Source: Azolla caroliniana (Eukaryota > Plantae > Polypodiophyta). Taken from it: a DNA stretch of 15,247 nt. A program made the position numbers and the translations under genes. Below, one piece after another: positions 1 through 15,247 of this stretch (the first letter of the stretch is position 1; every line of letters begins with the position of its first letter). The notes beneath the pieces are model-generated. The model saw only the letters and a list, made by a program, of their open reading frames with translations, was not told the origin of the DNA and searched no databases. The stretch is taken from positions 1 through 15,247 of the forward strand of contig JBHGNT010000807.1 in the NCBI GenBank assembly GCA_043228905.1, in the 5' to 3' direction.

Positions 1-756
1 AGTCGGGTGGGAACCGCCGAGGTTTTGGACTAGGAGAAAGAAGAATATGAGATGAGGCTAGTAATAAATAGATTATTAGAAAGAGAGATAGAAATTTCGT
101 GAATCCCACGAGTGTATTTTATTCGATTAATCAATATTTAGATAAGAATATGTATTTAGATTGAAAGAAAGATATAAGAAACTTGTGAATCCCACAAGTA
201 TAGATTATATTATTTTCGTGAATCCCACGATTATATTAATCGGTTGGTGTTTTCGGAAATATATCCAATTTCCAAATATTTCACACGCCTATTACATTGT
301 GCTCCCCATCCTTATGTAGTGATGGGAGAGACTAAGCATAGCTACATGCTTTTTTTCTAATATATTCATGCACACTAAATGTGCATGTGATGCTTTTCTA
401 ATCCTTGCTTTTATTTGCTAAATATAGTGCTCATGCACGCTAGATGTGCATGAGTCACTTTTTTGTTGCTTGCATTTTTCTATAAAATATTCACGCACTC
501 TAAAAATGCACGATTTATCTTTGAATAAAGGTAGGTGCAAATAAAGCACTTATAGTTATTAAATCTATTTGTAAAACACTAAAGATAAGGTAGCATAATG
601 GTAAAGTTAAGGTTTGGTTACGTGGAGGTACAGGGTTCGAATCCTACCTTATGCACGTGATAAATATCTTGATATATTATTTTATTTATTTATATGTAAT
701 TAAATCGGTTATATTATTTTTACTTTTTCACGTAGTGTACGAAATACACTACGACA
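1..756 (-). mobile_element. LTR, family A, copy A1 (5' LTR or solo LTR; about 32 bp cut off by the left window edge)
   Basis: 1-83 aligns with 4007-4089 and 84-~330 aligns with 9420-~9666. Both copies end in ...CGTAGTGTACGAAATACACTACGACA (756 and 10081). Copy A2 begins TGTCGT at 3975, giving TGTCGT/ACGACA terminal inverted repeats. Orientation comes from the PPT beside copy A2. No PPT follows 756; copia gag sequence starts immediately. Confidence 0.9.
584..654 (+). promoter_or_regulatory. tRNA-derived Pol III type-2 promoter-like cassette (A box + B box) inside LTR A1
   Basis: A box TAGCATAATGG 591-601 and B box GGTTCGAATCC 634-644. ATAAGGTAG 585-593 is the reverse complement of CTACCTTAT 644-652. 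A TTTT run follows at 680-683. There is no intact anticodon arm. Confidence 0.75.
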
Positions 757-3700
757 TCGTTGGGAGGCATGCTCAAGCTCACCGGCTCCAACTATTCCAT
801 GTGGAAGTCGAAGATGAAGGACATGCTCGTGGTTAAAGATCTTTGGTTGCTAGTTCAGTTCGGGGACAAGAGACCAGACAAAATCGACGCCACGAGATGG
901 GAGGTGATGCACATGAAGACAACGGCATAGATATGGTGCTTCATCGACATGAGCCTATACAACAACTTCAATGAAGAGAGCAAGGCTCAGGACCTCTGGG
1001 AGAAGATTGGCATTATGTTTTAGAACAAAAATGATGTTAACCAGGTTTCGGTATTCCGGAAGCTAGTAAGACTCCGGTACCAAGATGGCTCCAGCATGGC
1101 GGAGCACATGAATGCCTTTCAGGGGCTGATACACCAGGCAACATCATTGGAAATACCTCTCGCCAATGAGGTACTAGCGGTACTCTTGCTCGGTTCCCTC
1201 CCGGATAGCTGTGAGACGTTGGTTGTCACTTTGGGCAACGCAGGGCCGGAAGGGAAACAATTATCCCTAGCAAGAGTGAAGTCGAGCTTGCTAGATGAGG
1301 AGGCGCGTTGGAAAGATAAGGACACGAACTACGACTCCAAAGCGCTCCTTACCGAATCGGAACACGGAAGACAAAGGAACCGTAATCCCCAGAACCAGGA
1401 AAAATCGGGGACACAGTCAAAGTCAAGGGGGAGGCCTACTTGCTTCTATTGAGGCAAGCCGGGACACTACCAAAAGAACTGTCGGCATTTCCGTAAAGAC
1501 AAGGAAACCAATGGTACCGATTCGAAGCAAACCCCGGACCGGAACAGTAAAGACCGGAGGGGGCCGGACCGGAAGGGAACAACGGCAATCGCGGCAAGTG
1601 AAGAAGAGTTGATGCTCATCACCGAGGAGAGTGAGCTAAACCTTACCGACGACGAGATGACCTGGGTGGTCGACTCCGGAGCGTTGTTCCACCTTACCCC
1701 GAACCGGAAATGCTTCTCATCCTACTCAGCCGGTGATGACGGTTGTGTCCGTATGGGGAATGAAGGTACATGCCGAATTGTCAGCATAGGAGGCGTGTTG
1801 TTGAATACACCAACCAGATGCAAGCTGCTGCTGAAGGATGTCCCACATGTTCTGGAGGTTCGTCTGAAGCTGATATCAGCCGGTCGGCTAGATGATGAAG
1901 GTTACACTGGTAGCATCCGTAACGGTGTTATGAAGTTTAGCAAAGGGAGCCTGATTGTGGCTCGGGCCCGGAAGGTAAACACATTGTACCTTATGAATGC
2001 CTGGTTATGTCTGGAGGAAGTGAATGTGGCATCCGACACTCCGGTGAGTTGTGTCACATGAGGAGAAGGCGATAAGAGGCTTGCAGACAACAACCTCATT
2101 CGAGTTAAGAACGTGCACTTGGAGAACTACACTGACTGTTTGGCCGGTAAACAAAACCAGACCTCCTTCCGATCGAGACCACCGATGAGACATAATGCAC
2201 CACTCGAGTTGCTGCATACTGATGTATGTCAAGTGGACACGAAGTCACATGGTGGATCGCAGTATTTCGTGACGTTCATAGATGACCACAGTCGGAAGCT
2301 GTGGGCCACACCGTTGAAGACGAAGGATCAGGTGTTATCTGTCTTCAAAGAGCTCCACGCGAGAGTGGAAAGAGAAACTGGCCGGAAGCTGAAGGCGGTT
2401 CGAGCAAATAACGGAGGTGAATACCGGGGGTAGTTCGAGGAGTACTACCGCTCGAAGGGAATCCGGCTCGAATTTACTGTGCCGAAGATGCCGGAACTAA
2501 ACGGGCTGGCCGAGAGGATGAACCCAACCATAATGGAGAGGCTCCGGAGTATGTTGGCGCATGCAAAACTACCCAAGAAGTTTTGGGCTGAGGCACTGTC
2601 GACGGCGACATATGTGATAAACAGATCACCCTCAATACCCTTGGACGGAGACACGCGATAGAGAGTTTGTACCGGTAAGGAAGTGTCCTACCGGCATCTG
2701 AAGGTATTCGGGTGTCTCGCGTATGTGCATGTAGCTAAGGACCGGAGAGGAAAACTAGATTTGAAGACCCGACCATGCATATTCCTCGGTTACGGCGACG
2801 ATGAGTTCGGCTACCGAGTGTGGGACCTAGTCCAGAAGAAGGTATTCCGGAGTCGAGATATTATCTTCATGGAGGACAAGACGCTCGCCGACTAGGAGTC
2901 GGAGAAGAAGATAATAAACTCCGAGTTGACCGGTAAGGATCGATTCTACGATGAGCCGACCCAACCGGCAAGAGACCGGTTAGCACTCGAGGAACCAGCC
3001 GGTTACGGTGAGGATACTGAACCGGCAGAAGAAGAAGTAGAGGAAGCTGAAACCGGAACCGGCCAAGACCCCGAATCAGATTCAGATGAAGAGCAAATGG
3101 AGGAGCCGGTTACCGAAGCCCGAAGACGGAGATATCCTCTCAGAGAGAGAAGGCCCCCCCGGAGATTTCCGGATGCAGAGCATGTGCTGCTAACCGATGA
3201 GGGGGAGCTAGAAAGCTTCGAAGAAGCGAAGGATGACACCCACAACCGAAAATGGTTAAGTGCCATGCAGGATGAGATGGATTCCTTGCATGAGAACCAT
3301 ACGTACGAATTGGTGGAGTTGCCGAAAGGAAAGCGGGCAATCCGAAACAAGTGGGTGTACAAGTTGAAACCGAGAGATGCCGGCAACCCCCCGAGATACA
3401 AAGCCAGGATCGTGGTGAAGGGGTTCCAGTAGATGAAGGGCATGGACTTCGACGAGATATTTTCCCCGGTAGTAAAGATGACCTCTATCCGGACGGTGCT
3501 GAGTATAGCGGCAAGCATGGACCTCGAGGTAGAGCAGCTGGACGTGAAGACGATATTCCTTCACGGTGACCTCGAAGAGGAGATTTACATGTAGCAACCG
3601 GAAGGATTTGTGGAGAAAGGGAAGGAGCACCTGGTATACTGGTTGAAGAAGAGACTGTACGGACTGAAGCAGGCTTCCCGACAATGGTACCGGAAGTTCG

Positions 3701-3974
3701 ACTCCTTCATGACCGATCAAGGGTACCACAAGACGCAGACCGATCACTGTGTGTTTGTGAAGAATTTCGAAGGAGGCGACTTCCTGATACTCCTTCTGTA
3801 CGTGGACAAGATGTTGATCATCGGACGGGACCAAGCCAAAATACGGATGCTAAAGAAGGCTCTCAACCGGACCTTCTCAATGAAAGACTTGGGTCCGGCA
3901 AGACAGATGCTGGGGATGCATATCATCCGGAACCGGCCAACGAAGCAATTGTGGCTGTCGCAGGAGAAGTACGT
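757..3974 (+). mobile_element. Ty1/copia retrotransposon C (Tnt1/Tork-like), internal region only, interrupted at both ends by family A LTRs
   Basis: Copia domain order gag-PR-IN-RT is present. No LTRs of its own are in the window. RT breaks off at LWLSQEKYV|TGTCGT (3974/3975). Confidence 0.92.
769..3974 (+). pseudogene. Degenerate copia gag-pol polyprotein of element C
   Basis: Gag N-terminus MLKLTGSNYSMWKSKMKDML from 769. UBN2-type gag LLLGSLPDS. Zinc knuckle CFY*GKPGHYQKNC 1441-1482. Protease WVVDSGA 1663-1683. Integrase LELLHTDVC...YFVTFIDD...VRANNGGEY...ELNGLAERMN 2113-2895. RT NKWVYKLK...YKARIVVKGF, QLDVKTIFLHG, LYGLKQASRQW, LYVDK (degenerate YVDD) ~3250-3974. Multiple in-frame stops and a small indel near 2045-2100. 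Confidence 0.92.
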
Positions 3975-4089
3975 TGTCGTGCCTTTCGTCTCCGGATCGT
4001 TGCGTGAGTCGGGTGGGAACCACTGAGGTTTTAGACTAGGAGAAAGAAGAATATAAGATAAGGTTAGTAATGAATAGATGATTAGAAAG
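3975..4089 (-). mobile_element. LTR family A copy A2, left segment (split by insertion of element B)
   Basis: Starts TGTCGTGCC at 3975 exactly where copia C RT homology stops. 4007-4089 matches 1-83 (8 mismatches by eye). Confidence 0.9.
4085..4089. repeat. 5-bp target site duplication GAAAG of element B (left copy; right copy 9415-9419)
   Basis: ATTA-GAAAG-TGTTGAG... and ...TTCTACA-GAAAG-AGAGATAG. The uninterrupted site ATTAGAAAGAGAGATAG is present in LTR A1 at 75-91. Confidence 0.97.
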
Positions 4090-4524
4090 TGTTGAGAGAC
4101 AAGCTCAACATCGGCCGGATCGGCTGAAGAAGCCGAGGACCGGATCGGTTGGGACCGATCGGTTAGGCCGAATGCGTAAACCGGTACGCAGACCGGTGCG
4201 TAGGTAGGGCTGGATCGGTGCGGAAACCGGGAGGCCGTTAGGAAAGATATTCCGTGAGGAATATATTTGGGAGTTAGTGTAGGAGCTCTCAATGAGCATT
4301 GAAGTACTGTCAGTACTTTAGTCAGTCCTTCTAGGACTTGTATAAAAGTGTTCACTGAGCACGTCTTATGTACAGATCGAGTATTATTGTTGAATATAGT
4401 TCTTGTGATTTCACTCTCTCTGTCTCTCTCGTGTATACTGTGTAAGCTCAAGTTCTGCATTAAACCTAAGTTTTTCTTCCTTTAGTTCGGTCTTCATACT
4501 TGCTTCCGCACGCTACTTTCTACA
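4090..4524 (+). repeat. 5' LTR of element B (435 bp)
   Basis: TGTTGAGAGAC...CTACTTTCTACA, a direct repeat of 9050-9414 with 6 substitutions and a 70-bp indel. TATA-like TATAAAA at 4341-4347. Confidence 0.97.
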
Positions 4525-4535
4525 TGGTATCAGAG
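4525..4535 (+). promoter_or_regulatory. Primer binding site complementary to the 3' end of initiator tRNA-Met
   Basis: TGGTATCAGAG immediately after the 5' LTR; this is the standard plant copia PBS. Confidence 0.95.
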
Positions 4536-7500
4536 GGCGAGGGTTGAGAACCTCTCTGCAGCCGACACAGCTTGACGAAGAAGAGCAAGAAGAACGATGG
4601 ATAGAGGCATGGCGATCTTGCTTCCAACAAAGAAGCTTGACAGAACCAACTACGCGTTTTGGTCCTACAAGATGCACCAGTACCTGCTCGGGCACGGGTA
4701 CTGTAGTTATGTCGAAGGATCTAATGACGCGGCACCCAAATCGACACACAGAGACTTCCCGTCGTGGGAGCAATCGGCGAGCAGGGTATTATACTGCTTT
4801 GCATCGTGTGTGGGCGAACAACTATTGAGCTATGTTCGGGATGCCAAGATGCTGAAGGGTGCGTGTGAAAATCTGAAGAAGATTTTCGCCGCGAGCACCA
4901 CAGCGAGGAAGCTTCAGCTCCAACAGGAGTTGAGCAACCTACGACAACGCGACTTGTCGGTGGCGGACTATACCTCGAAGATCAAGGATATCTGCGACTC
5001 CCTCGGCTTCATAGAGGTGAACATCGAGGAGAGCGAGATGGTCCAGGTCTGTCTCGGAGGTTTGGCGTCGAAGTTCGGAGCGTTCCGAACGGCCGTGTGT
5101 ACCCGGGAGAATACGCCGTCCTTTTTCGACTTACAGTCAATGCTCCTGGTAGAGGAGAACCACGCGGGTGCGTCTACAAGCACGCACTGCGACAGTAGAA
5201 TGTTGTACACGGAGGGAGATAGGCCCCGTGGACGTGGAGGACGAGGCGAGTCGGCGCGCAATGGAGGCGGCCGACGAGATCAAGGAAGAAGGCACTGAAG
5301 TGATGCCGACAGCAACTCTGGACCCTCAAGAAATAGGGGGAGTCGAAGCGATGAGAACCGGCAAGGGAAGGCCATCGCGGAGTGTTGGTACTGTGGCAAG
5401 AAAGGCCACAGGGAAAGTGAGTGCTGGAAGAAGCGCGCCGATTCGGAGAGAACCGGTTCCGGAAACGGCTCCGGACATACCGACAAGGGAGATCGGCAGC
5501 GATCGCACTACGCCGAAGACTCCGGGAGAGCCGGAGAAGGGTCTACCTTCGTGACGAGACACGAAGCAAACTCAATGAAACAGACCACCCCGAGATCGGA
5601 TGAGGTGTGGTACGTAGACTCCGGCGCGTCAAACCACATGACGAGCCATAAGGAGTGGTTCTCGTACCTTGAAAAACTGATACAACCATAAGGTGTGGTA
5701 CGTAGACCACGTCAACTACCAGCGGCTTCAAGATCTGTAATTAAAAGAGGTAGTGTTCGGATTGCCCAAATTTAGTGGCCGAAAGGCACAAATTGGTGAA
5801 GCCTGCCAGCTCGGGAGGCAACACCGACTTCTTTTCCCCAATGAGCGAAACCGGAGCTGGAACAAGCTCAACCTTATACACTCCGATGTATTGGGGCCAA
5901 CACAAAACGTTAGTCTCGGCGGGAGCCGATATTTCGTCTCCTTCATCAACGACCACACGCGGCACATGTGGATTTACCTCATTGAGAGGAAGAGCGAAGT
6001 CTTCAACTGTTTTCGGGAACTCAAAGGGTTCGTGGAAACGGAAATTCAACAGTTATCTACAACAAATGGGAATTCGGCGCGAATTCAGTTGTAGATACAC
6101 GCCGGAGTAGAACGGCGTGGCCGAGAGGAAGAATCGGTCAGTTGTGGAAGCGGCACAGGCAATGCTAGAGGAGAAGAGCTTGCCCAAGTTCTATTGGGCC
6201 GAGGCGGTAAGGACCGCGGTATACATCCAGAACCGGATCGGAGACAAAGTGTCGGTGCACGAGCTATATTTCGGAACGAAGCCGAACTTGCGACACTTGA
6301 GGGTGTTCGGTAGCATTGCGTATGTGCATGTACCGATGGAGAAAAGGAGGAAGCTGGACCCAAAGGCCGAGAAATGCATCTTGGTCGGTTACTCGGACGA
6401 GCAGAAGGGCTATAAGTGCTATAACCCTCGCACCAAACAAGCGTGTGTTAGCCGTGACGTTATGTTTTACGAGTTTGCGTCCTGGTATCAACCCCCGACT
6501 CCGCACCCCGACTCCAATCCGAGCTCTGATGATGAGGTCAGCGAGGCCGAGATGCCTCCGGATGAGCCCGAAATCGAGTCCCGCGAAGAGAGTCCGATTT
6601 CACTCCGTTTAAGTGGACCGATTGGACGACTGAGTCGGTACGACCAATCCGATGAAGAGCCGACGAGTAGTGGAGACTCCGCCGTGCATTCCCCGCGTAG
6701 GAAGCTGAGGAGACGGCTTACACGCGAAGAGAAAGGGAAGAAGAAGGTGTCGGATTCCGGCACGGATAGGAACGGTCGGATCGACACGAGTCCGACTTCG
6801 AGGGAAGTGGCGACGGACCTTCAAGAACGAAGTCCGCGTCAGCCGAGAAGACCTCGACATCGGCAAATGACCGATTGCGCCAATCTACCTACCAAAAGAA
6901 CCCAGTTGTGCGGTTCGGATACAACGAGTACATGGCGCATCACTATGCGTACATGACCCGTGTAGCGGAAGTGCGTGAGCCGGAGAGCTATGCAGAAGCG
7001 GCTAAAGACGCGACTTGGCGTGCCACGATGGAAGAAGAGATGCACGCATTGGCGGAGAACGAGACTTGGGACTTGGTTGACACACCGAAGGGTGTGAAAC
7101 CGATCAGGTGTAGGTGGGTGTACAAGGTCAAGTACAACACCGATGGCTCGGTCAACCGGTACAAGGCTTAGCTAGTGGCAAAGGGCTACACGCAGAAACA
7201 CGGCATCGACTACGATGAGACATTTGCGCCGGTCGCGAAAATGACGACCGTCCGCGTTTTGCTCACAGTAGCTGCGGTGAAGGGGTGGCACTTACATCAG
7301 ATGGATGTAAAGAATGCGTTCCTGCAAGGTGACCTCGTGGAACATGTGTACATGGTACAGCCCCCCGGATTTCACTCTGGAACGAATTCCTCGGCAGTAT
7401 GCCGACCGAAGAAGTTCCTTTACGGACGGAAGCAAGCCCCGCGTGCCTGGAACGCGAAGATCACGCAACACTTGCTTCGGATGGGCTTCGTCACGTCAAA

Positions 7501-8508
7501 ATCGGACTCTTCCCTGTTCATCTGGAAAGGTCGACTCAGACCGGTTAGTATTTTACTATATGTTGATGACTTGGTCATCACCGGCGCCGACCTAGGTGAA
7601 ATCGACCGCGTGAAGCTCCAGCTTGCGGCATCGTTCGACATGAAGGATCTAGGGGACCTTCATTACTTCCTCGGGATCGAAGTGATCCGTACCCCCGAAG
7701 GCATATTGATCAGCCAACGTCATTACGTGCTAGGTATGTTGTTCAAATTCGGGATGGCCGACTATAAGTCCGTCTCGACTCCTCTAGACAGAACCGTCAA
7801 GCTTTGTCTCGATACGGGAAGGGTATGTGACCCGACGAGGTTCTGACAAATTGTCGGAAGCCTCATATACTTGACCATCACCCAACCCGACCTCAGTTAT
7901 CCGGTCAGAGTGATCAGTCAGTTCATGGCGCGACCTACCGAGGAGCACCACCAGTGTGCGCAATGCATACTTCGGTATGTCAACGGCACTAAGGACCAAG
8001 GACTGCTATATCGGACCGGTGCAGCCGCATAGTTAGTCGGCTACACCGATGCTGATTGGGCTAGCAATGCCGCCGATAGCCGATCCACGTCCGGATACGC
8101 GTTCTCCCTCGGAAGTGCCGCGATCGCGTGGAGCAGTAAGAAGCAGCCGACAGTTGCACTGTCGAGCACCGAAGCTGAGTACCGAGGAGCGGTTATTGCG
8201 ACATGCGAAGCCATATGGTTGAAGTGGTTACTTAAGGACCTGCAAGAGGAGGTGTCCAATCCAACGACGATCTACTGCGATAACCTCAACAGCATCCAAC
8301 TTGCGAAGAACCCCATCTTCCACGCACGGACCAAGCACATTGAGGTCCATTACCATTTCGTCCGAGATCGTGTCCTTCCCGGTGAAGTCGAACTTTAGTT
8401 TGTGCCGACGGATCAACAGACTGCCGACATCTTCACAAAGCCTCTTGGTTTGGACAAGTTGCGGCAATTCTCAGGTGCACTCGGATTGTGTCACCTCGAC
8501 GTGCCAAA

Positions 8509-8520
8509 CTTGAGGGGGAG
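8509..8520 (+). promoter_or_regulatory. Internal second PPT-like motif at the end of RNase H
   Basis: CTTGAGGGGGAG is identical to 9038-9049, which abuts the 3' LTR. Confidence 0.6.
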
Positions 8521-9040
8521 AAATGTCCCGAATGACCAAGCAAGGCAGCAGTAAAGGAACGGAGACTGTCACACCAAGTCGGTTGACTCGGTTGTCGAGT
8601 TCGACTTTGGATCGGCTGAAGAAGCCGAGGGCGGACCCGCGGAAAAGTCCGGAAGCGGACAGAAGGGGAACAGCCGAAGGAGGGAGCCGAAGCCAACCAC
8701 GCATGGGGAAGATGACGCCGTCAAGGGCGAGAAGACTGAAGACAAGTTGGAGACAGCCAACTCGGACGAGAGTGAAAACCGATCGGAGGTAGCCGAGTCG
8801 GTTCGGATGTTTGATTTAGATACGCTGAATCAACCGAGGCCCGAACGGAAGAAAAGGCAGCAGGAGAAGTGTCAACACCGGAACAACAGAAGAGCTGATA
8901 AGGGCCACATGAGCAGACAAGTCGACCGGAAGGGTCGAAGTGCGCGGAGTCGAACAGGTCGAGGAGCGCGAGCGAGGCGTGAAGCCAGGAGGAACTGGAG
9001 CTGTGAGCCCAAAGATCCCGAAGAGCCTCAAGTTGAGCTT

Positions 9041-9049
9041 GAGGGGGAG
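9041..9049 (+). promoter_or_regulatory. Polypurine tract of element B
   Basis: GAGGGGGAG directly before the TG of the 3' LTR. Confidence 0.93.
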
Positions 9050-9414
9050 TGTTGAGAGACAAGCTCAACATCGGCCGGATCGGCTGAAGAAGCTGAGGAC
9101 CGGATCGGTGCGGAAACCGGGAGGCCGTTAGGAAAGATATTCCGTGAGGAATATATTTGGGAGTTAGTGTAGGAGCTCTCAATGAGCATTGAAGTACTGT
9201 CAGTACTTTAGTCAGTCCTTCTAGGACTTGTATAAAAGTGTTCACTGAGCGAGTCTTATGTACAGATCGAGTATTATTGTTGAATATAGTTCTTGTGATT
9301 TCACTCTCTCTGTCTCTCCCGTGTATACTGTGTAAGCTCAAGTTCTCCATTAAACCTAAGTTTTTCTTCCTTCAGTTCGGTCTTCATACTTGCTTCCGCA
9401 CGCTACTTTCTACA
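9050..9414 (+). repeat. 3' LTR of element B (365 bp)
   Basis: Direct repeat of 4090-4524, followed by TSD GAAAG 9415-9419. Confidence 0.97.
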
Positions 9415-9419
9415 GAAAG

Positions 9420-10081
9420 AGAGATAGAAATTTCGTGAATCCCACGAGTGTATTTTTTTCGATTAATCAATATTTAGATAAGAAGATGTAGTTAGATTGA
9501 AAGAAAGATATAAGAAACTTGTGAATCCCACAAGTATAGATTATATTATTTTCGTGAATCCCACGATTATATTAATTGGTTGGTGTTTTCGGAAATATAT
9601 CCAATATCCAAGTATTTCACACACCTATTACATTGTGCTCTCCATCCTTATGTAGTGATGAGGGAGTCTTAGGAATCCATGCTTTTTTTTCTCTAACTAT
9701 AGACTCCATGCTTTTCCTATAGACTATATGCTTTATCTAAAGTGATTATGCTTTTTCTAACTTGTGCGTCTTTTATCAACTATAGCGTTCATGCACGCTA
9801 GATGTGCATGCATAGCTTTTTCTTTTAGCATGCGTTTTTCTTTTAACTAAAGTTTATCCTACGTGAACTTACCTTTTTTATGTAAAAAAGGACATCTACT
9901 TTTTAACATGAATAAAATGCTAGTATAATGGTAAGACATTACATTATTAACATGGAGGTGTAAGGTTCGAATCTTGCCGTATGCATGTTATATATATTTT
10001 AATATTTTCTACTATTTATTCATATTTATTAAATCGGCACTTTATAAGTTTTTCACGTAGTGTACGAAATACACTACGACA
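9420..10081 (-). mobile_element. LTR family A copy A2, right segment; 3' LTR of a minus-strand element
   Basis: Resumes colinearity with A1 position 84 directly after the TSD and ends ...CACTACGACA at 10081. A minus-strand PPT is adjacent. Confidence 0.9.
9914..9984 (+). promoter_or_regulatory. tRNA-derived Pol III promoter-like cassette (A box + B box) inside LTR A2
   Basis: A box TAGTATAATGG 9921-9931 and B box GGTTCGAATCT 9964-9974, with the same 43-nt offset as in A1. TTTT at 9997-10000. Confidence 0.7.
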
Positions 10082-10093
10082 CTCGCCCCCTCC
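10082..10093 (-). promoter_or_regulatory. Polypurine tract of element A2
   Basis: The minus strand reads GGAGGGGGCGAG immediately followed by TGTCGTAGTG (LTR start). Confidence 0.85.
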
Positions 10094-10582
10094 GAACCCG
10101 CACATCCTCCGGTATGTGCCGAAGTTGTCGGTGATTGTTAGTCTCGTCCGTCCGTTTTCCGCATGGTTGGTTTCGTCGCCGGTCATTTTTGGTTGCCGGC
10201 CCCGTTCGGTCTCCGGTTTTTGGTTGCCGACTTCGCCCGGTTTCCGGTTCAGTTCGGTTGCCGGCTCTGTCCAGTCTCCGATTACTAGCCCTTGTAATTC
10301 TTCGTTACTTGTTGTACCCTTTGTTTCTCTCGTTATGTCAGCTTTGTCTCTCCATTTTGAGCACGTCCATTCTTTCCACCCGAACCATTGTTGCCATCCG
10401 ATCCACCATAGTCTTCATTCATTCTTTGCATTGCCATGAGTGGTTGTCATGGTCCCTTGTGGTACTCTTGAGCATCTCAGCGTGTTGTCTCTCTCCACTC
10501 CGTGCTTGTCTTCTGTAGGTTCTACCCACGCGTCGATGTCGACCTCCGAATACGCGCTCGCTGTTAGGTCCTTGTGCGGTTT

Positions 10583-11427
10583 TCATGCATGCTTTATTTC
10601 TCGTTGTTGCACATGTGTCGTATTCCATCGTAGTGCATGCGTCGTATTACCCCGTAGTGCATGCTTCTTTTTGCACCATAGCGCGTGCTTCTTTTTGCAC
10701 CGTAGCGTGTGCTTCTTTTTACGCCATAGCGTGTGCTTCTTTTGGTGCCGTAGCGCGTGCTCCGTATTACATGCTTCTCCCATCATAGACCCGACCTTCG
10801 CATTGTTGTGCTTTTGTTTACATCGGAATTTCAGATGGATCATCTTCCATCCGAACCAGCTTCCGACTTTACCTTCCTTGTTGCCACCTCCCGTCTCTCC
10901 GGTCTCACGTTGGTTCTTGGACACAACCGCTGAAGTCTCTAGAATTAGTGGGTAGGAATCCTCGGTATTATCACCCTCCGTTGTTTCACCCATAGCCATA
11001 TTCTCGGCTATCTCTCCGTCGTACGCATCGGCTTCGACCTTTGTTTTCTCTCCGCCACCTTCTGTCTCTTCGGTCTCACGTTGCCTTTCGAACGCAACCG
11101 CCGGAGTCTCTGGAATCAGTGGTGGGGATGTCTCGATATGGCCATCCACCATTGATTCGTCCATAGCCACCTTCGATTCGATGTCATCTTTCGTGGCGAC
11201 CTCCTCAATGAAGTCGTCCTTGCTCTCTTTCACTGCATCAATTATGCAAACATCAATTATGCTTACCCCTTTTTCACCCGATGTTTCAGATACTTGCATT
11301 CCGAAATCTTCTTCCACACTTGGGTTATCGGCCTTATCCTTAGCCGTAGTTCTTTCGCAAGACAAGAGGGTAGCTTGTTGTACACCCTCTTCCGTCACAC
11401 CATCATGTTGTATTTCGGCCTTCAGTA
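10583..11427 (-). CDS. 5'-truncated ORF of unknown function (acidic, low complexity, internal repeats) in element A2; possibly pseudogenised
   Basis: The 271-aa ORF 10583-11398 stays open up to the junction (LKAEIQHDG-VTEEG). It is E/D/T-rich, with a 57-aa-period duplication and 8-aa repeats. I recognise no domain. Confidence 0.55.
10605..10772. repeat. 24-bp tandem repeat, about 7 degenerate units
   Basis: Units start at 10605, 10629, 10653, 10677, 10701, 10725 and 10749. Approximate consensus CRTAGYGYRTGCTTCTTTTTGCAC. Confidence 0.92.
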
Positions 11428-14400
11428 ACTGAAGCCCAACGCCAACATCATCAGGACAATGGACTCTGTCTCTATTGTGGCAACCCCGGCCATGTCATCC
11501 GCGCCTGCCTGGTGCGGGGCCTGCTGCACCAATTCCATCGTGCACATCTTGTGGAGGTTCCTCAACAACAAGAAAACGACCAAGTCCGGTTGCAGTAGGA
11601 GCCATGCCGTTGGACACTTCTTGTTATGCATCTTCTCTATGCTCCTACAAGCCCGTTCTGCCATTAGGAGGGTTCTCTTTGCAAGTAATTCTTTGTTTTG
11701 GTTCAACTTCAATACATTATCATGCCTTGCTCGATTTCGGAGCATTTACTTGCTTTATCGATAAATCGTTTGTTCGCGCACATAATATCCCCACTATCCG
11801 CACATCACAACCCATATTCGTTGAGGCGATTGACAATCGGGTTCTCTCTTCGGGGGCAGTTCCCGAAGCCACTATCCCATTGGTACTTCAAGTCCGGGCG
11901 CATCAGGAGGAACTCACGTTCTACCTCATCGCAACCCCCCGACATCCGAGTGTGTTGGGGCTATCTTGGTTGGAGACACACAATCCAACGGTGGATTGGT
12001 GTAACCGCTCCATCACTTTTCCAGTAACGCCAATTCCTTCTAGGTCACGACACTCTTTTGATTCCGTTGCGGTCGAGACCGGTTTGGTCGCTACACGGGC
12101 CATTGTGTCAGGGGATGTCACCGTTCCTGTCAACAATTTACCCATCCGATATAACGACTTTTCTGACATCTTCGAAAAGCGGGATGTTGATCGGTTACCG
12201 GCTCATCGCGCCTACGATTGCCCAATCGAACTCCAAGTTGGCGAGCATCCCCCATTTGGTCCTATCTATGGGTTATCTGAACCCAAACTTGAGGCTCTCC
12301 ACATATATCTGGCTAAGATCTCACGAAGGGCTTCATTCAACCCTCCAAATCACCGACCGGGGCACCAATCTTATTTGTCAAAAAGAAGGATGGCTCCTTA
12401 CGCTTATGTGTAGATTATCGGGGCCTCAACAAAGTTACGGTGCATAATCGTTACCCCTTGTGCTTATTTCCAACGCTCCTCGATCGACTCTGAACTGGGC
12501 ATATTTTCTCCAAAATCGACCTTCGGGGCACATACAATTTGGTGCGCATCAAGCCTGGGGACAAGTGGAAAACTGCTTTTCAGACGCACTATGGACATTT
12601 CGAGTACAAAGTGATGCCATTCGACCTTACCAACACTCCGGCCGTCTTCCAACACATGATGAATGATATTTTTCGAGAGTATCTTGATCATTTCATGGTC
12701 ATCTACCTTGACAACATCCTAGTTTTTTCTTCCAACTAGGAGGGGCACACACACCACGTCCAGCTGGTTCTCACCAAACTTCGGGAATATGGGCTGTTCG
12801 CCAAAAATGAGAAATGTGAATTCGATCAAACCTCTATTGAATTCCTGAGTTACATGATCTCACCTACCGGGATGACAATGGATGAACGGAAGGTGGCGGC
12901 AACCACTGATTGGCCTCTCCCGACTCGGCTGAAAGAGGTACAATCGTTTCTTGGTTTTGCAAATTTTTATAGAGGACTTATAAACGAGTTCTCTTCCCTA
13001 GTCCAACCTCTCATCCACCTTACCCGGAAAGATACTCCATTTCATTGGACCCCCGCGGCACACAATGCTTTTAATGCCCTCAAAGCAGCTTTTCTCGCCG
13101 CCCTCGTGTTAGTCCACCACGACCCCACCTGCCCTTTCCAAGTTGAAACCAATGCCTCTGACTTTGCCATAGGTGTGGTCTTGTCTCAGCCCGACGATGA
13201 TGGCACCCTGCATCCGGTCGCCTTTTACTCTCGGATGTTTATAGCCTTGGAAATCAATTATTCGGTCTATAATAAGGAGCTTGTAGCTATCATCTCGTCC
13301 TTTGCCGAATGGCGACCCTATCTGGTTGGGGCCCAACATCGTCTTCAGGTGCTGACTGACCACATGAATCTCATCTACTTCACCACCATTCATATGTTGA
13401 ATCAGAGGCAGGCTTGTTGGTCATCTTTTCTCACCGACTATGACTTCGAAATCTTTTTTCAACCCGGCGTTCAACATGGGAAAGTAGATACTCTCTCTCG
13501 GCAACCCGACTTTGCACTACGCCCAGGTGACGAGGCATATTCTCAGCAATTGCATTGTTTATTGTGTCCCAATCAACTCCAAATGTTAGCAACCTATATG
13601 TTGCAGGATGATTCCTTGCTCAACGAGATCGCCCAAGCAACTGCATCGGTCCCTTTCGCTAGTGACATCATGGTGTGCCTCAACAACCCATCCCAGTAAA
13701 TGCAAAGCTCAGATCTCAGTCACTTTACAAATCAATATGGGCTACTCTATCGTAATCACCTCCTTTACGTACCAACTGGCACATGTCACCCGATTACATG
13801 ATGTCACTTCTAATCAAGGTCCTCAATTTATCTCCCACTTTTGGCACCGAATTCTATAGACATTCGGGACTTTTGAGAACTTGTCAACCGTGCACCACCC
13901 TCAAACTGATGGTCAAACCGAAAGTGTCAACCAAATCCTCGAATAATACCTCCGGTGTACAGTCAACTACCAACAAGAAGATTGGGTGGACTTGCCATGG
14001 TGGAACTTCCCTACAATAATAGTATCCATGCCTCAACTATTGTTTCCCCATTCTTTGCAAACTATGGTTTCCACCCTTGTTTCAGCATTTCCATTCTACA
14101 GATTTCAGTCAATCCATCGGCCGAGAGGCGTGCCCACACCTTACAAGATGTCCATCGTGACCTCTACCTCGAGCTCCGTGCCGCTGGAAAATAGTATAAA
14201 GCTCACACAGATCGACATTGCTTAGTCACATCGACCTTCATAGTCAGTGACATGGTTTGGCTGTTATGTCGCGACATCGCAACCACCAGTCCCTACGCGA
14301 AGCTTGACTACAAAAAGCTAGACCCCTTCTGTATACTTGAGTGCGTTAACCTAGTCGCCTTCCAATTAGCACTTCCTCACACATTTCAGCTTCATAATGT

Positions 14401-14670
14401 TTTCCACGTCTCTCTCCTCGAACTCTACCATCCTTCTCACATTCCAGGACGACAACCTCCTCCTCCACCGCTCGTGGAATTATCGACAAGTGAGGAGTAC
14501 GAGGGTTTTGACCTGATCGTCAACTCCCGCTTGTGTCGACGAAGACTTCAAAATAGTTGGTCTTATGGAAAGGTTACCCTCTTTCAGATGCCACATGAGA
14601 ACCAATTACACATTTACAACATGCGTCAGAGGCAATTCGCGCTTTTCATCAACGATACCCTCATAAACTG
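11428..14670 (+). pseudogene. Degenerate gypsy gag-pol of element D
   Basis: TEAQRQHHQDNGLCLYCGNPGHVIRAC (CCHC knuckle) from 11428. Protease ALLDFGA ~11724 and [72 protein letters not shown]. RNase H VETNASDFAIGVVLSQ, NYSVYNKEL. Partial integrase SNQGPQFISHFW, HPQTDGQTE, SPFFANYGFHP, HNVFHVSLLE. Many frameshifts and stops. Confidence 0.92.
14492..14670 (+). other. Chromodomain remnant at the integrase C-terminus of element D
   Basis: EEYE...IVNSRLCRRRLQ, then after a frameshift VLWKGYPLSDAT*EPITHLQHASEAIRAFHQRYP. This matches the EY-V--I...YLV-WKGY...TWEP chromodomain pattern. Confidence 0.85.
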
Positions 14671-14695
14671 GTCGTGGATGTTAGGAGGCGGCCTT

Positions 14696-14708
14696 AGAGG
14701 AAGGATAA
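14696..14708 (+). promoter_or_regulatory. Polypurine tract of element D
   Basis: AGAGGAAGGATAA directly before TGTCATAGAC. Confidence 0.8.
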
Positions 14709-15105
14709 TGTCATAGACATGCCACGGAGGAAGGTAGGGATTGAACCCAAGACCTCATGGTCTCTATTGGGAAGCCCTACCAATTGAGCTACATATGCAT
14801 CCTTGCACCAAATCCAACTTCGTGTAGTGTAGATTGAACACTGCAAGTTCCTATCTTGCATGCATCCTCATTTCTAGCTTGCACACATTCTCATGCATTC
14901 TCTATTGCATGCATCCTCATGCATCCTCTATTTTCTAGTTGTCTTATATAACCCTACCTTCTTGTATAAATATTCAGGTGCACCTTCATTTTAATCAAGG
15001 TGAAAAACACCAGTTATGGATTCTATAAGTTAAGTTCTTGTTCTTTTCCTCTCTCTTGTTTTCTAGTCTTGTCTTCGCTCTGCTCTATTATACTTGTCCG
15101 TGACA
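14709..15105 (+). repeat. 3' LTR of element D (397 bp)
   Basis: Begins TGTCATAGAC after the PPT and ends GTCCGTGACA (8/10 terminal inverted repeat). TATA-like TATAAATA ~14964 and a pyrimidine-rich 3' part. There is no second copy in the window to confirm the boundaries. Confidence 0.8.
14727..14798 (-). promoter_or_regulatory. tRNA-derived Pol III promoter-like cassette inside LTR D
   Basis: The minus strand reads TAGCTCAATTGGTAGGGC-T-TCCCA-ATAGAGA-CCATG-AGGTC-TTGGG-TTCAATC-CCTAC. A box 14791-14780, B box GGTTCAATCCC 14747-14737. The D stem GCTC/GGGC pairs and the T stem pairs at 4 of 5 positions. Anticodon and acceptor stems do not pair. Confidence 0.8.
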
Positions 15106-15247
15106 ATTATCCCATAAGTTTTGGGCTCAAGGAAATCGTTGTTTACCTTCCATCATATTGGGGTGCGTAATCATTTTCATATCTATCCCTCTCGTCTCTT
15201 GTATAGTCGTCCTCCCAATATGGGTCCTCTTCCAACGAGGGTCGCTT
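15106..15247 (-). other. Flank of element D; coding-like acidic sequence, probably another TE (possibly the continuation of element A2)
   Basis: The minus strand translates KRPSLEEDPYWEDDYTRDERDRYENDYAPQYDGR*. It is on the same strand as the A2 ORF and similarly acidic, but too short to identify. Confidence 0.3.

Follow-up and report, generated by a model that had tools for sequence, protein, structure and literature searches.

The 3' long terminal repeat (LTR) of a chromodomain-bearing Ty3/gypsy element, here called family D, contains a tRNA-derived A box and B box on its minus strand, in exact tRNA register. Comparison of related sequences shows this cassette to be real and family-wide, and it is probably under selection. 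Descriptions of RNA polymerase (Pol) III modules in LTRs have so far been confined to short non-coding elements, in which they serve as promoter, and a conserved module lying backwards in pol-coding elements requires another function than that of element promoter.

The cassette and the element that carries it

On the minus strand of the window (the whole 15,247-nucleotide stretch of DNA analysed), tRNA position 1 falls at 14798, T8 at 14791 and G53 at 14746, and 18 bp separate the end of the cassette from the edge of LTR D (Table 1). An earlier note on this DNA had placed the cassette about 20 bp inside a 397-bp LTR, with boxes at exact tRNA numbering from T8 to G53, and both the register and the shuffles described below bear this out. 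Counted in tRNA register, the window copy pairs at 4/4 positions of the D stem, 4/5 of the T stem, 1/5 of the anticodon stem and 3/7 of the acceptor stem, in agreement with the same note's description of a paired D arm, a nearly paired T arm and scrambled anticodon and acceptor arms. ARAGORN finds no tRNA at the cassette, and the Rfam tRNA model gives 14.5 bits (gathering score 29, E 2.2) on a 251-nt segment containing it; over the whole window nothing tRNA-like is reported. Lacking acceptor and anticodon stems, and with the tRNA finders blank, the LTR D cassette is not a functional tRNA gene.

Nor is the pair of boxes in LTR D due to chance. The background frequency of such pairs, a check that the earlier note had called for, is 0 in 20,000 dinucleotide shuffles of LTR D for a strict A+B pair and 1 in 1,000 shuffles of the window, and 13 in 20,000 and 23 in 1,000, respectively, for a looser pattern. 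The real window contains three pairs, the one in LTR D and those in two copies of a second LTR, family A; the LTR of copia element B has none, as had been noted. Neither a tail nor a target-site duplication was seen around the LTR D cassette, and no cassette copies lie outside LTRs in the 687 kb scanned. A decayed A+B-like stretch at L016:15481-15557 (minus strand), apart from the chromovirus LTR and outside the training set of the model that found it (R1, E 0.0027), is possibly a SINE remnant.

Loose ends, which diverge ahead of 14709, and summed contig depth, which drops to flank level past 15105, back the limits of LTR D. Ahead of it lies a 3.3-kb gag-pol remnant in which protease, reverse transcriptase (RT), RNase H and SH3 domains were detected, together with a chromodomain recognized by homology to a close relative, P0124, which has a Chromo match at E 1.3e-16. 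Y, W and Y residues are visible in the chromodomain alignment at what we take to be the aromatic cage positions. Element D is a chromodomain-bearing Ty3/gypsy element, Tcn1-like as judged by domain order and chromodomain, the tree built here containing no named references.

Because a TATA-like box at 14965 and an R-start motif near 14997 are kept in relatives, the cassette can be assigned to the outer edge of U3, where it faces away from the TATA-like box. Relatives that have the cassette and relatives that lack it alike retain this TATA-type promoter and R start. The predicted R start is based on a family D joint, 15105>15006 (strand not given), with three letters between. In relatives L003, L011 and L016 a self-priming site complementary to the R start follows the LTR, three bases past its end. 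A conserved hairpin lies directly before the likely transcript start in the window (14980-15010), in L003 (1960-2140) and in L011 and L016. At the other end of the element (11420-11430), family A on the minus strand and family D on the plus strand, both without their 5' parts, are joined head to head within their gag regions, which may be a deletion or an assembly join.

Table 1. Positions of the features discussed (window coordinates, except for L080)
Feature	Position	Strand	Remarks
Family A LTR copy 1, cassette	584..654	+	LTR on minus strand, outer end 756, flank NCGN
Family A LTR copy 2, cassette	9914..9984	+	minus-strand 3' LTR 10081 to 3975, interrupted by copia B; flank NCGN
Element D, decayed gag (CCHC knuckle)-protease-RT-RNase H-integrase-SH3-chromodomain	11423..14698	+	5' truncated; stops and frameshifts
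T4 run named in the earlier note	14550..14553	-	245 nt; specific to the frameshift of the window copy
First T4 run of the family majority (broken in the window copy)	14618..14621	-	would end Pol III read-out at ~180 nt
Polypurine tract (PPT)	14696..14708	+	directly before LTR D; same tract in relatives
Family D 3' LTR, 397 bp, TGTCA..TGACA	14709..15105	+	5' LTR outside the window
tRNA-derived cassette (tRNA positions 1-72)	14727..14798	-	antisense to element D, outer end of U3
B box (tRNA positions 53-61)	14738..14746	-	8/9 positions invariant over 4 subfamilies
A box (tRNA positions 8-19), TAGCTCAATTGG	14780..14791	-	9/12 positions invariant over 4 subfamilies
TATA-like box, likely Pol II promoter of the element (putative function)	14965..14972	+	153-176 bp from cassette +1 in 5 copies
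Likely start of R region	14997..15006	+	complementary to self-priming site after LTR of relative L003; predicted for family D
L080 cassettes	4827-4899; 4995-5065	sense	T run after each

Distribution and conservation of the boxes

Relatives were fetched by their integrase-chromodomain protein, independently of the cassette, which gave 79 metagenome, one viral and eight genome loci. Over 552 kb of these loci a relaxed A+B pattern finds nine pairs, seven of them antisense at the start of a 3' LTR (L001, L004-L007, L015 and L056; 7 of the 79 metagenome loci) and two in a single further locus, L080. The seven antisense carriers are every locus (7/7) whose LTR start aligns with LTR D, and the spacing from A to B box is identical in six and 1 nt longer in the seventh. 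Repetitive contigs under five organism labels (A-E) cover the cassette as well, always in the antisense orientation. The proposal that the cassette is a standing module of the LTR of a pol-coding chromovirus is thereby upheld for family D, as are the family-wide presence and fixed strand that had been named as checks (7/7 antisense).

For organism A, four runs covering 14450-15247 were used, from at most three samples and three studies, one of them perhaps the source of the window itself. Each has 129-1093 contigs over this interval. In the LTR their summed depth exceeds that of the flank by two to three orders of magnitude and peaks over the cassette, a measure of repetition and not of copy number. 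Among the 40 variants listed for organism A (there are 126 more), cassette changes occur only at 14772 and 14774, neither of which falls in a box. Four runs from three studies, one of them (X16) flagged as probably DNA, represent organisms B, C, D and E and were compared at a minimum of 80% identity; variants reaching at least 25% affect 0/9 positions of the B box, 2/12 of the A box and 10/51 of the remaining cassette.

The cassette is not found throughout the wider lineage. L003 belongs to the same protein clade and has a homologous LTR core without it; at L003:1850-2140 this shorter LTR leads directly into a gag ORF, in a tandem or collapsed copy, and provides a natural control. In a more distant family it was found in 0 of 27 loci (24 with at least 200 nt of LTR), and in 0 of the 40 other loci. 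Besides the seven carriers there are five close loci, L003, L002, L055, L012 and L039; L002 and L055 are interrupted before the LTR and were not scored. L012 and L039, more distant members of the clade, were recovered as decayed carriers by model R1, but both were part of its training set and they are not counted. Under a matrix built from family D cassettes alone, L012 scores 15.1 (matched in 1/300 shuffles) and L039 9.8 (8/300 shuffles); L039 does not stand out from 12 control LTR starts, the best of which reaches 10.7, and has no tRNA match in Rfam, so that these two hold at most decayed traces. A tree of 38 chosen rows splits 13 close rows from the rest with an ultrafast bootstrap of 91, the order inside being unresolved. 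No further carriers came up among viral contigs, which were scanned for PPT patterns, the end of LTR A and the protein of family D.

Four subfamilies, represented by the window, L001, L006 and L007, can be compared gap-free in tRNA register with the boxes preset as positions 8-19 and 53-61. The boxes are invariant at 17/21 positions, versus 19/51 elsewhere in the cassette (Fisher p 0.0007) and 12/27 fourfold-degenerate sites of the adjacent coding region (p 0.011), both p values being indicative only, as they come from four related sequences of unresolved tree order. With L015 in place of the window, the boxes are invariant at 16/21 positions and the fourfold sites at 10/27. Over the six pairs of subfamilies, identity is 17-20 of 21 positions in the boxes, 58-82% at fourfold sites and 5-13 of 17 positions in the anticodon arm. 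D-stem pairs are kept in 27/28 cells; pair 49:65 is mismatched in all seven D-clade copies, and the anticodon and acceptor stems are lost, which speaks for conservation as DNA and not as a tRNA. Changes that weaken the boxes do occur: G10A in 4/7 and G53A in 2/7 aligned copies, and G10A at 239/522 depth units in run X16. Among family D copies at least 80% identical the contrast is weak (variants of at least 25% at 2/21 box positions versus 10/51 others). Since the boxes are kept above both the rest of the cassette and the synonymous sites, the comparison points to selection on a promoter-like DNA motif. The kept D arm, variable loop-T arm and D-stem pairs could also be explained by a role at the level of RNA.

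Family A also contains a tRNA-derived cassette in antisense, with T8 160-165 bp from the LTR end. The earlier note was right that the two LTRs are unrelated and that both carry an antisense cassette; their interiors show no homology (best E 0.69). Three further points on family A call for correction. It is probably not a chromovirus: NCGN stands at both visible flanks (2/2), and NCGN with a 4-bp duplication is the insertion rule given for Phygy elements (PMC6317226). As judged from these flanks, family A is likely a Phygy-type non-chromovirus. Together with the Tcn1-like element D, the flanks point to a moss as the likely host (PMC6317226). Family A was taken to be protein-coding like family D, but the internal part (10082-11428, minus strand) consists of a gag-like ORF, about 500 non-coding bases, a PPT and the 3' LTR, with no pol before the PPT, and is possibly a pol-less Phygy-type derivative. 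Finally, its cassettes would not read out through the LTR boundary as those of family D would, since T4-T5 runs follow them inside the LTR, at +84 to +141. The ORF has 15 protein relatives, which extend into a gag-like region; the gag label for this neighbouring region is our assumption. Pfam and Atlas searches with the ORF were blank or low. The two family A LTRs are inserted at NCGN sites in a copia element that spans 757-9419, and a second copia element (B, duplication GAAAG) is nested in LTR copy 2.

Common descent of the A and D cassettes, which the earlier note had considered beside convergence, was suggested by an in-register match at positions 61-68 and then found unsupported on control tests. 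Identity between A and D at positions 62-72 is 38/88, modestly above the 29/88 of an unrelated control, L080, and both comparisons pass when permuted in the same way (682 and 508 of 20,000); at 20-30 and 40-52 the A-D identity is below that of the control. A profile built from D cassettes alone does not find the family A cassettes at E 1 in 687 kb. The two share nothing demonstrable beyond the boxes, and independent capture is therefore likelier than descent; on these comparisons, capture in A and D was probably independent.

L080 itself, a single record, is a third case: a full-length decayed gag-pol element, which we take to be of Tekay type from its PPT and LTR start, with two sense cassettes, both less than 400 bp from the start of its LTR. 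With the Rfam tRNA model the first cassette reaches 19.3 bits, and both 200-nt segments beat 300/300 shuffles under the family D-only matrix. Its sister Tekay-like elements lack the cassette (0/9).

Possible functions

We tentatively favour, by analogy, the idea that the family D boxes might be a DNA landing pad for TFIIIC and Pol III that acts as a chromatin barrier, which would keep the Pol II promoter of the element open and block silencing spreading in from the flank. One tRNA or SINE head would have inserted into an ancestral LTR and then been copied into both LTRs at each round of replication; TFIIIC would bind the boxes, and the outward orientation would spare the Pol II start, 150-175 bp away, from Pol III run-in. 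The cassette points outward and the element keeps a Pol II-type promoter, so that the replicating RNA cannot come from the cassette; any Pol III RNA would be a by-product, running from the 5' LTR into the flank and from the 3' LTR about 180 nt into the chromodomain end. What favours a landing pad is that promoter DNA and its spacing are kept in either orientation across lineages, antisense in family A and twice in sense in the Tekay-like L080. The tRNA-gene barriers of fission yeast depend on TFIIIC and Pol III and function whichever way they face (PMC2040200), and the chromodomain of the moss chromovirus RLG1 has been proposed to steer insertion into heterochromatin (PMC7466625). Against a landing pad, the module is dispensable in the wider lineage, being absent from L003, the distant family and other loci, and the precedent for a barrier comes from yeast and not from plants. 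It is a bolder and rather doubtful extension that coding LTR elements of at least three lineages (Tcn1-like, Phygy-like and Tekay-like) each acquired independently, in the outer U3, a tRNA-gene promoter that serves as a portable TFIIIC barrier, an insulator of their own for heterochromatin-seeking elements that would have seeded thousands of Pol III landing sites in plant genomes.

We consider it unlikely that the cassette is a passenger, a SINE head or tRNA copy that inserted backwards into an ancestral LTR and was copied along with no present function. The abundance of cassette-less relatives, the spread of box-damaging variants in subfamilies, the decayed traces, at most, in L012 and L039 and the weak contrast among close copies all speak for it, but neutral decay predicts uniform loss, whereas two interleaved blocks are kept (30/37 invariant at positions 8-26 and 44-61, block limits chosen post hoc) against 6/35 in the anticodon arm and at the two ends, and the boxes are more conserved than synonymous sites. 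A Pol III RNA from the 3' LTR might instead pair with the genomic RNA at its end, over the PPT and chromodomain tail, feed small-RNA silencing and so limit the element, and this antisense self-regulation seems quite unlikely. It would fit with the lack of a T4 run between the family D cassette and the LTR edge, with the finding that in 5/7 related loci the first T4 comes 179-181 nt after +1 (the other two having it at 90 nt in L007, where there is a deletion, and at 23 nt in L056) and with D and T hairpins that still fold on the Pol III strand. However, the shared T4 site is coding sequence (Gln-Asn codons) and may be incidental, and the window copy has lost it, C14620 being read as A in 14568/14625 depth units in run X1. 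The 245-nt antisense transcript of the earlier note does have its T4 in the window copy, at 14550-14553, but this run arises from a 2-nt insertion (794/1245 depth units in X1 are without it), so that the length depends on two private changes and the family majority would give about 180 nt. Moreover, in family A and L080 T4-T5 runs come 84-97 nt past +1, inside the LTR, and the sense orientation of the L080 cassettes argues against antisense RNA as a general purpose.

An improbable alternative is that the cassette acts in the element RNA as a complement of tRNA D and T arms, to which a host tRNA would anneal and help priming, dimerisation or packaging. The conserved blocks are exactly the D and T arms, antisense and in fixed register, G-to-A changes (in the tRNA sense) would still permit G-U pairing, and the bipartite primer-binding site of Ty3 offers a likeness, a U3 sequence complementary to the T and D arms of the primer tRNA that binds them (PMC5371799). 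Ty3, however, is tRNA-primed, whereas the family D lineage appears self-primed, with sites in L003, L011 and L016, and its complement spans the whole tRNA length in register (PMC5371799 for Ty3); most Tcn1 elements are reported to lack a tRNA primer-binding site (PMC6317226), the sense cassettes of L080 cannot dock a tRNA, and blastn against phage records found no matching tRNA, only short matches to tRNA-Pro and tRNA-Met (E 2-7) that are uninformative as to the donor. We give very little weight to a co-opted Pol II enhancer, in which the retained blocks would bind ordinary transcription factors and the Pol III machinery would be uninvolved: the cassette does lie in U3 among other conserved blocks upstream of the TATA-like box, and non-canonical box variants are tolerated, but the positions and spacing retained are those of a type 2 Pol III promoter, in three unrelated LTR types.

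Relation to described elements

The closest likeness is to Helenus (TRIMp3), which has a tRNA-derived sequence with boxes A and B inside its LTR but is non-coding and 311-1263 bp long, whereas family D has a gag-pol with a chromodomain; in the LTR consensus sequences compared, the Helenus cassette is in sense and proposed to be the element's own promoter, whereas that of family D is antisense at the outer edge, with a TATA-type promoter kept (PMC10886601). Because Helenus is non-coding and its cassette is in sense in the sequences compared, family D is not a member. In the parts of the Helenus account considered here, Selaginella is the source of the only plant Helenus, tRNA-like parts are ascribed to 'not a few' LTRs in Repbase, the analysis itself being of TRIMs under 1000 bp, and autonomous partners are held to need Pol II and to be unlikely to share such LTRs (Kojima 2024, PMC10886601). 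As those Repbase LTRs are mentioned in passing, the bare observation may sit unanalysed in repeat libraries.

Cassandra and Ajax likewise have a promoter module derived from a Pol III gene that is fixed in their LTRs and kept across families, but it is of 5S origin, the elements are non-coding and the module drives the element transcript; that of Cassandra always sits away from the LTR termini, at 25-75% of LTR length, in the material of these two sources, whereas the family D cassette is at the outer edge (PMC10886601, bioRxiv 10.1101/2023.07.14.548913). Plant Tcn1 chromoviruses resemble family D in domain order, in a chromodomain with aromatic residues, in a PPT-abutting TG..CA LTR of ~400 bp and in self-priming, seen in family D relatives, whereas their LTRs are described, in the sections compared, with TATA and CAAT boxes and no tRNA-like or Pol III element (PMC2864245, PMC6317226); neither 'tRNA-like' nor 'polymerase III' appears anywhere in PMC6317226. 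The barriers formed by tRNA genes and SINEs share with our proposal that DNA with A and B boxes, or a tRNA-derived SINE, serves as a chromatin boundary, but the yeast and mouse examples are host loci or free SINEs, whereas the family D cassette is fixed in an LTR and would have its barrier role by analogy (PMC2040200, PMC8136502). The portions of this literature compared describe no barrier that an LTR retrotransposon carries as a fixed component. For LTR elements that code for protein, the literature searched describes no such module; one may exist in Repbase reports, bioRxiv supplements or the majority of subscription journals, which lay beyond the search.

If the cassette is a barrier, it would offer a testable answer to how heterochromatin-aiming chromoviruses remain transcribable there, and a means of testing directly whether TFIIIC sites act as insulators in plants. 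LTRs of the family D type would also inflate tRNA-pseudogene and SINE calls in annotation. The eight genome loci among the relatives (L081-L088) are eukaryotic chromovirus fragments in bacterial genome bins, which suggests that these bins are contaminated.
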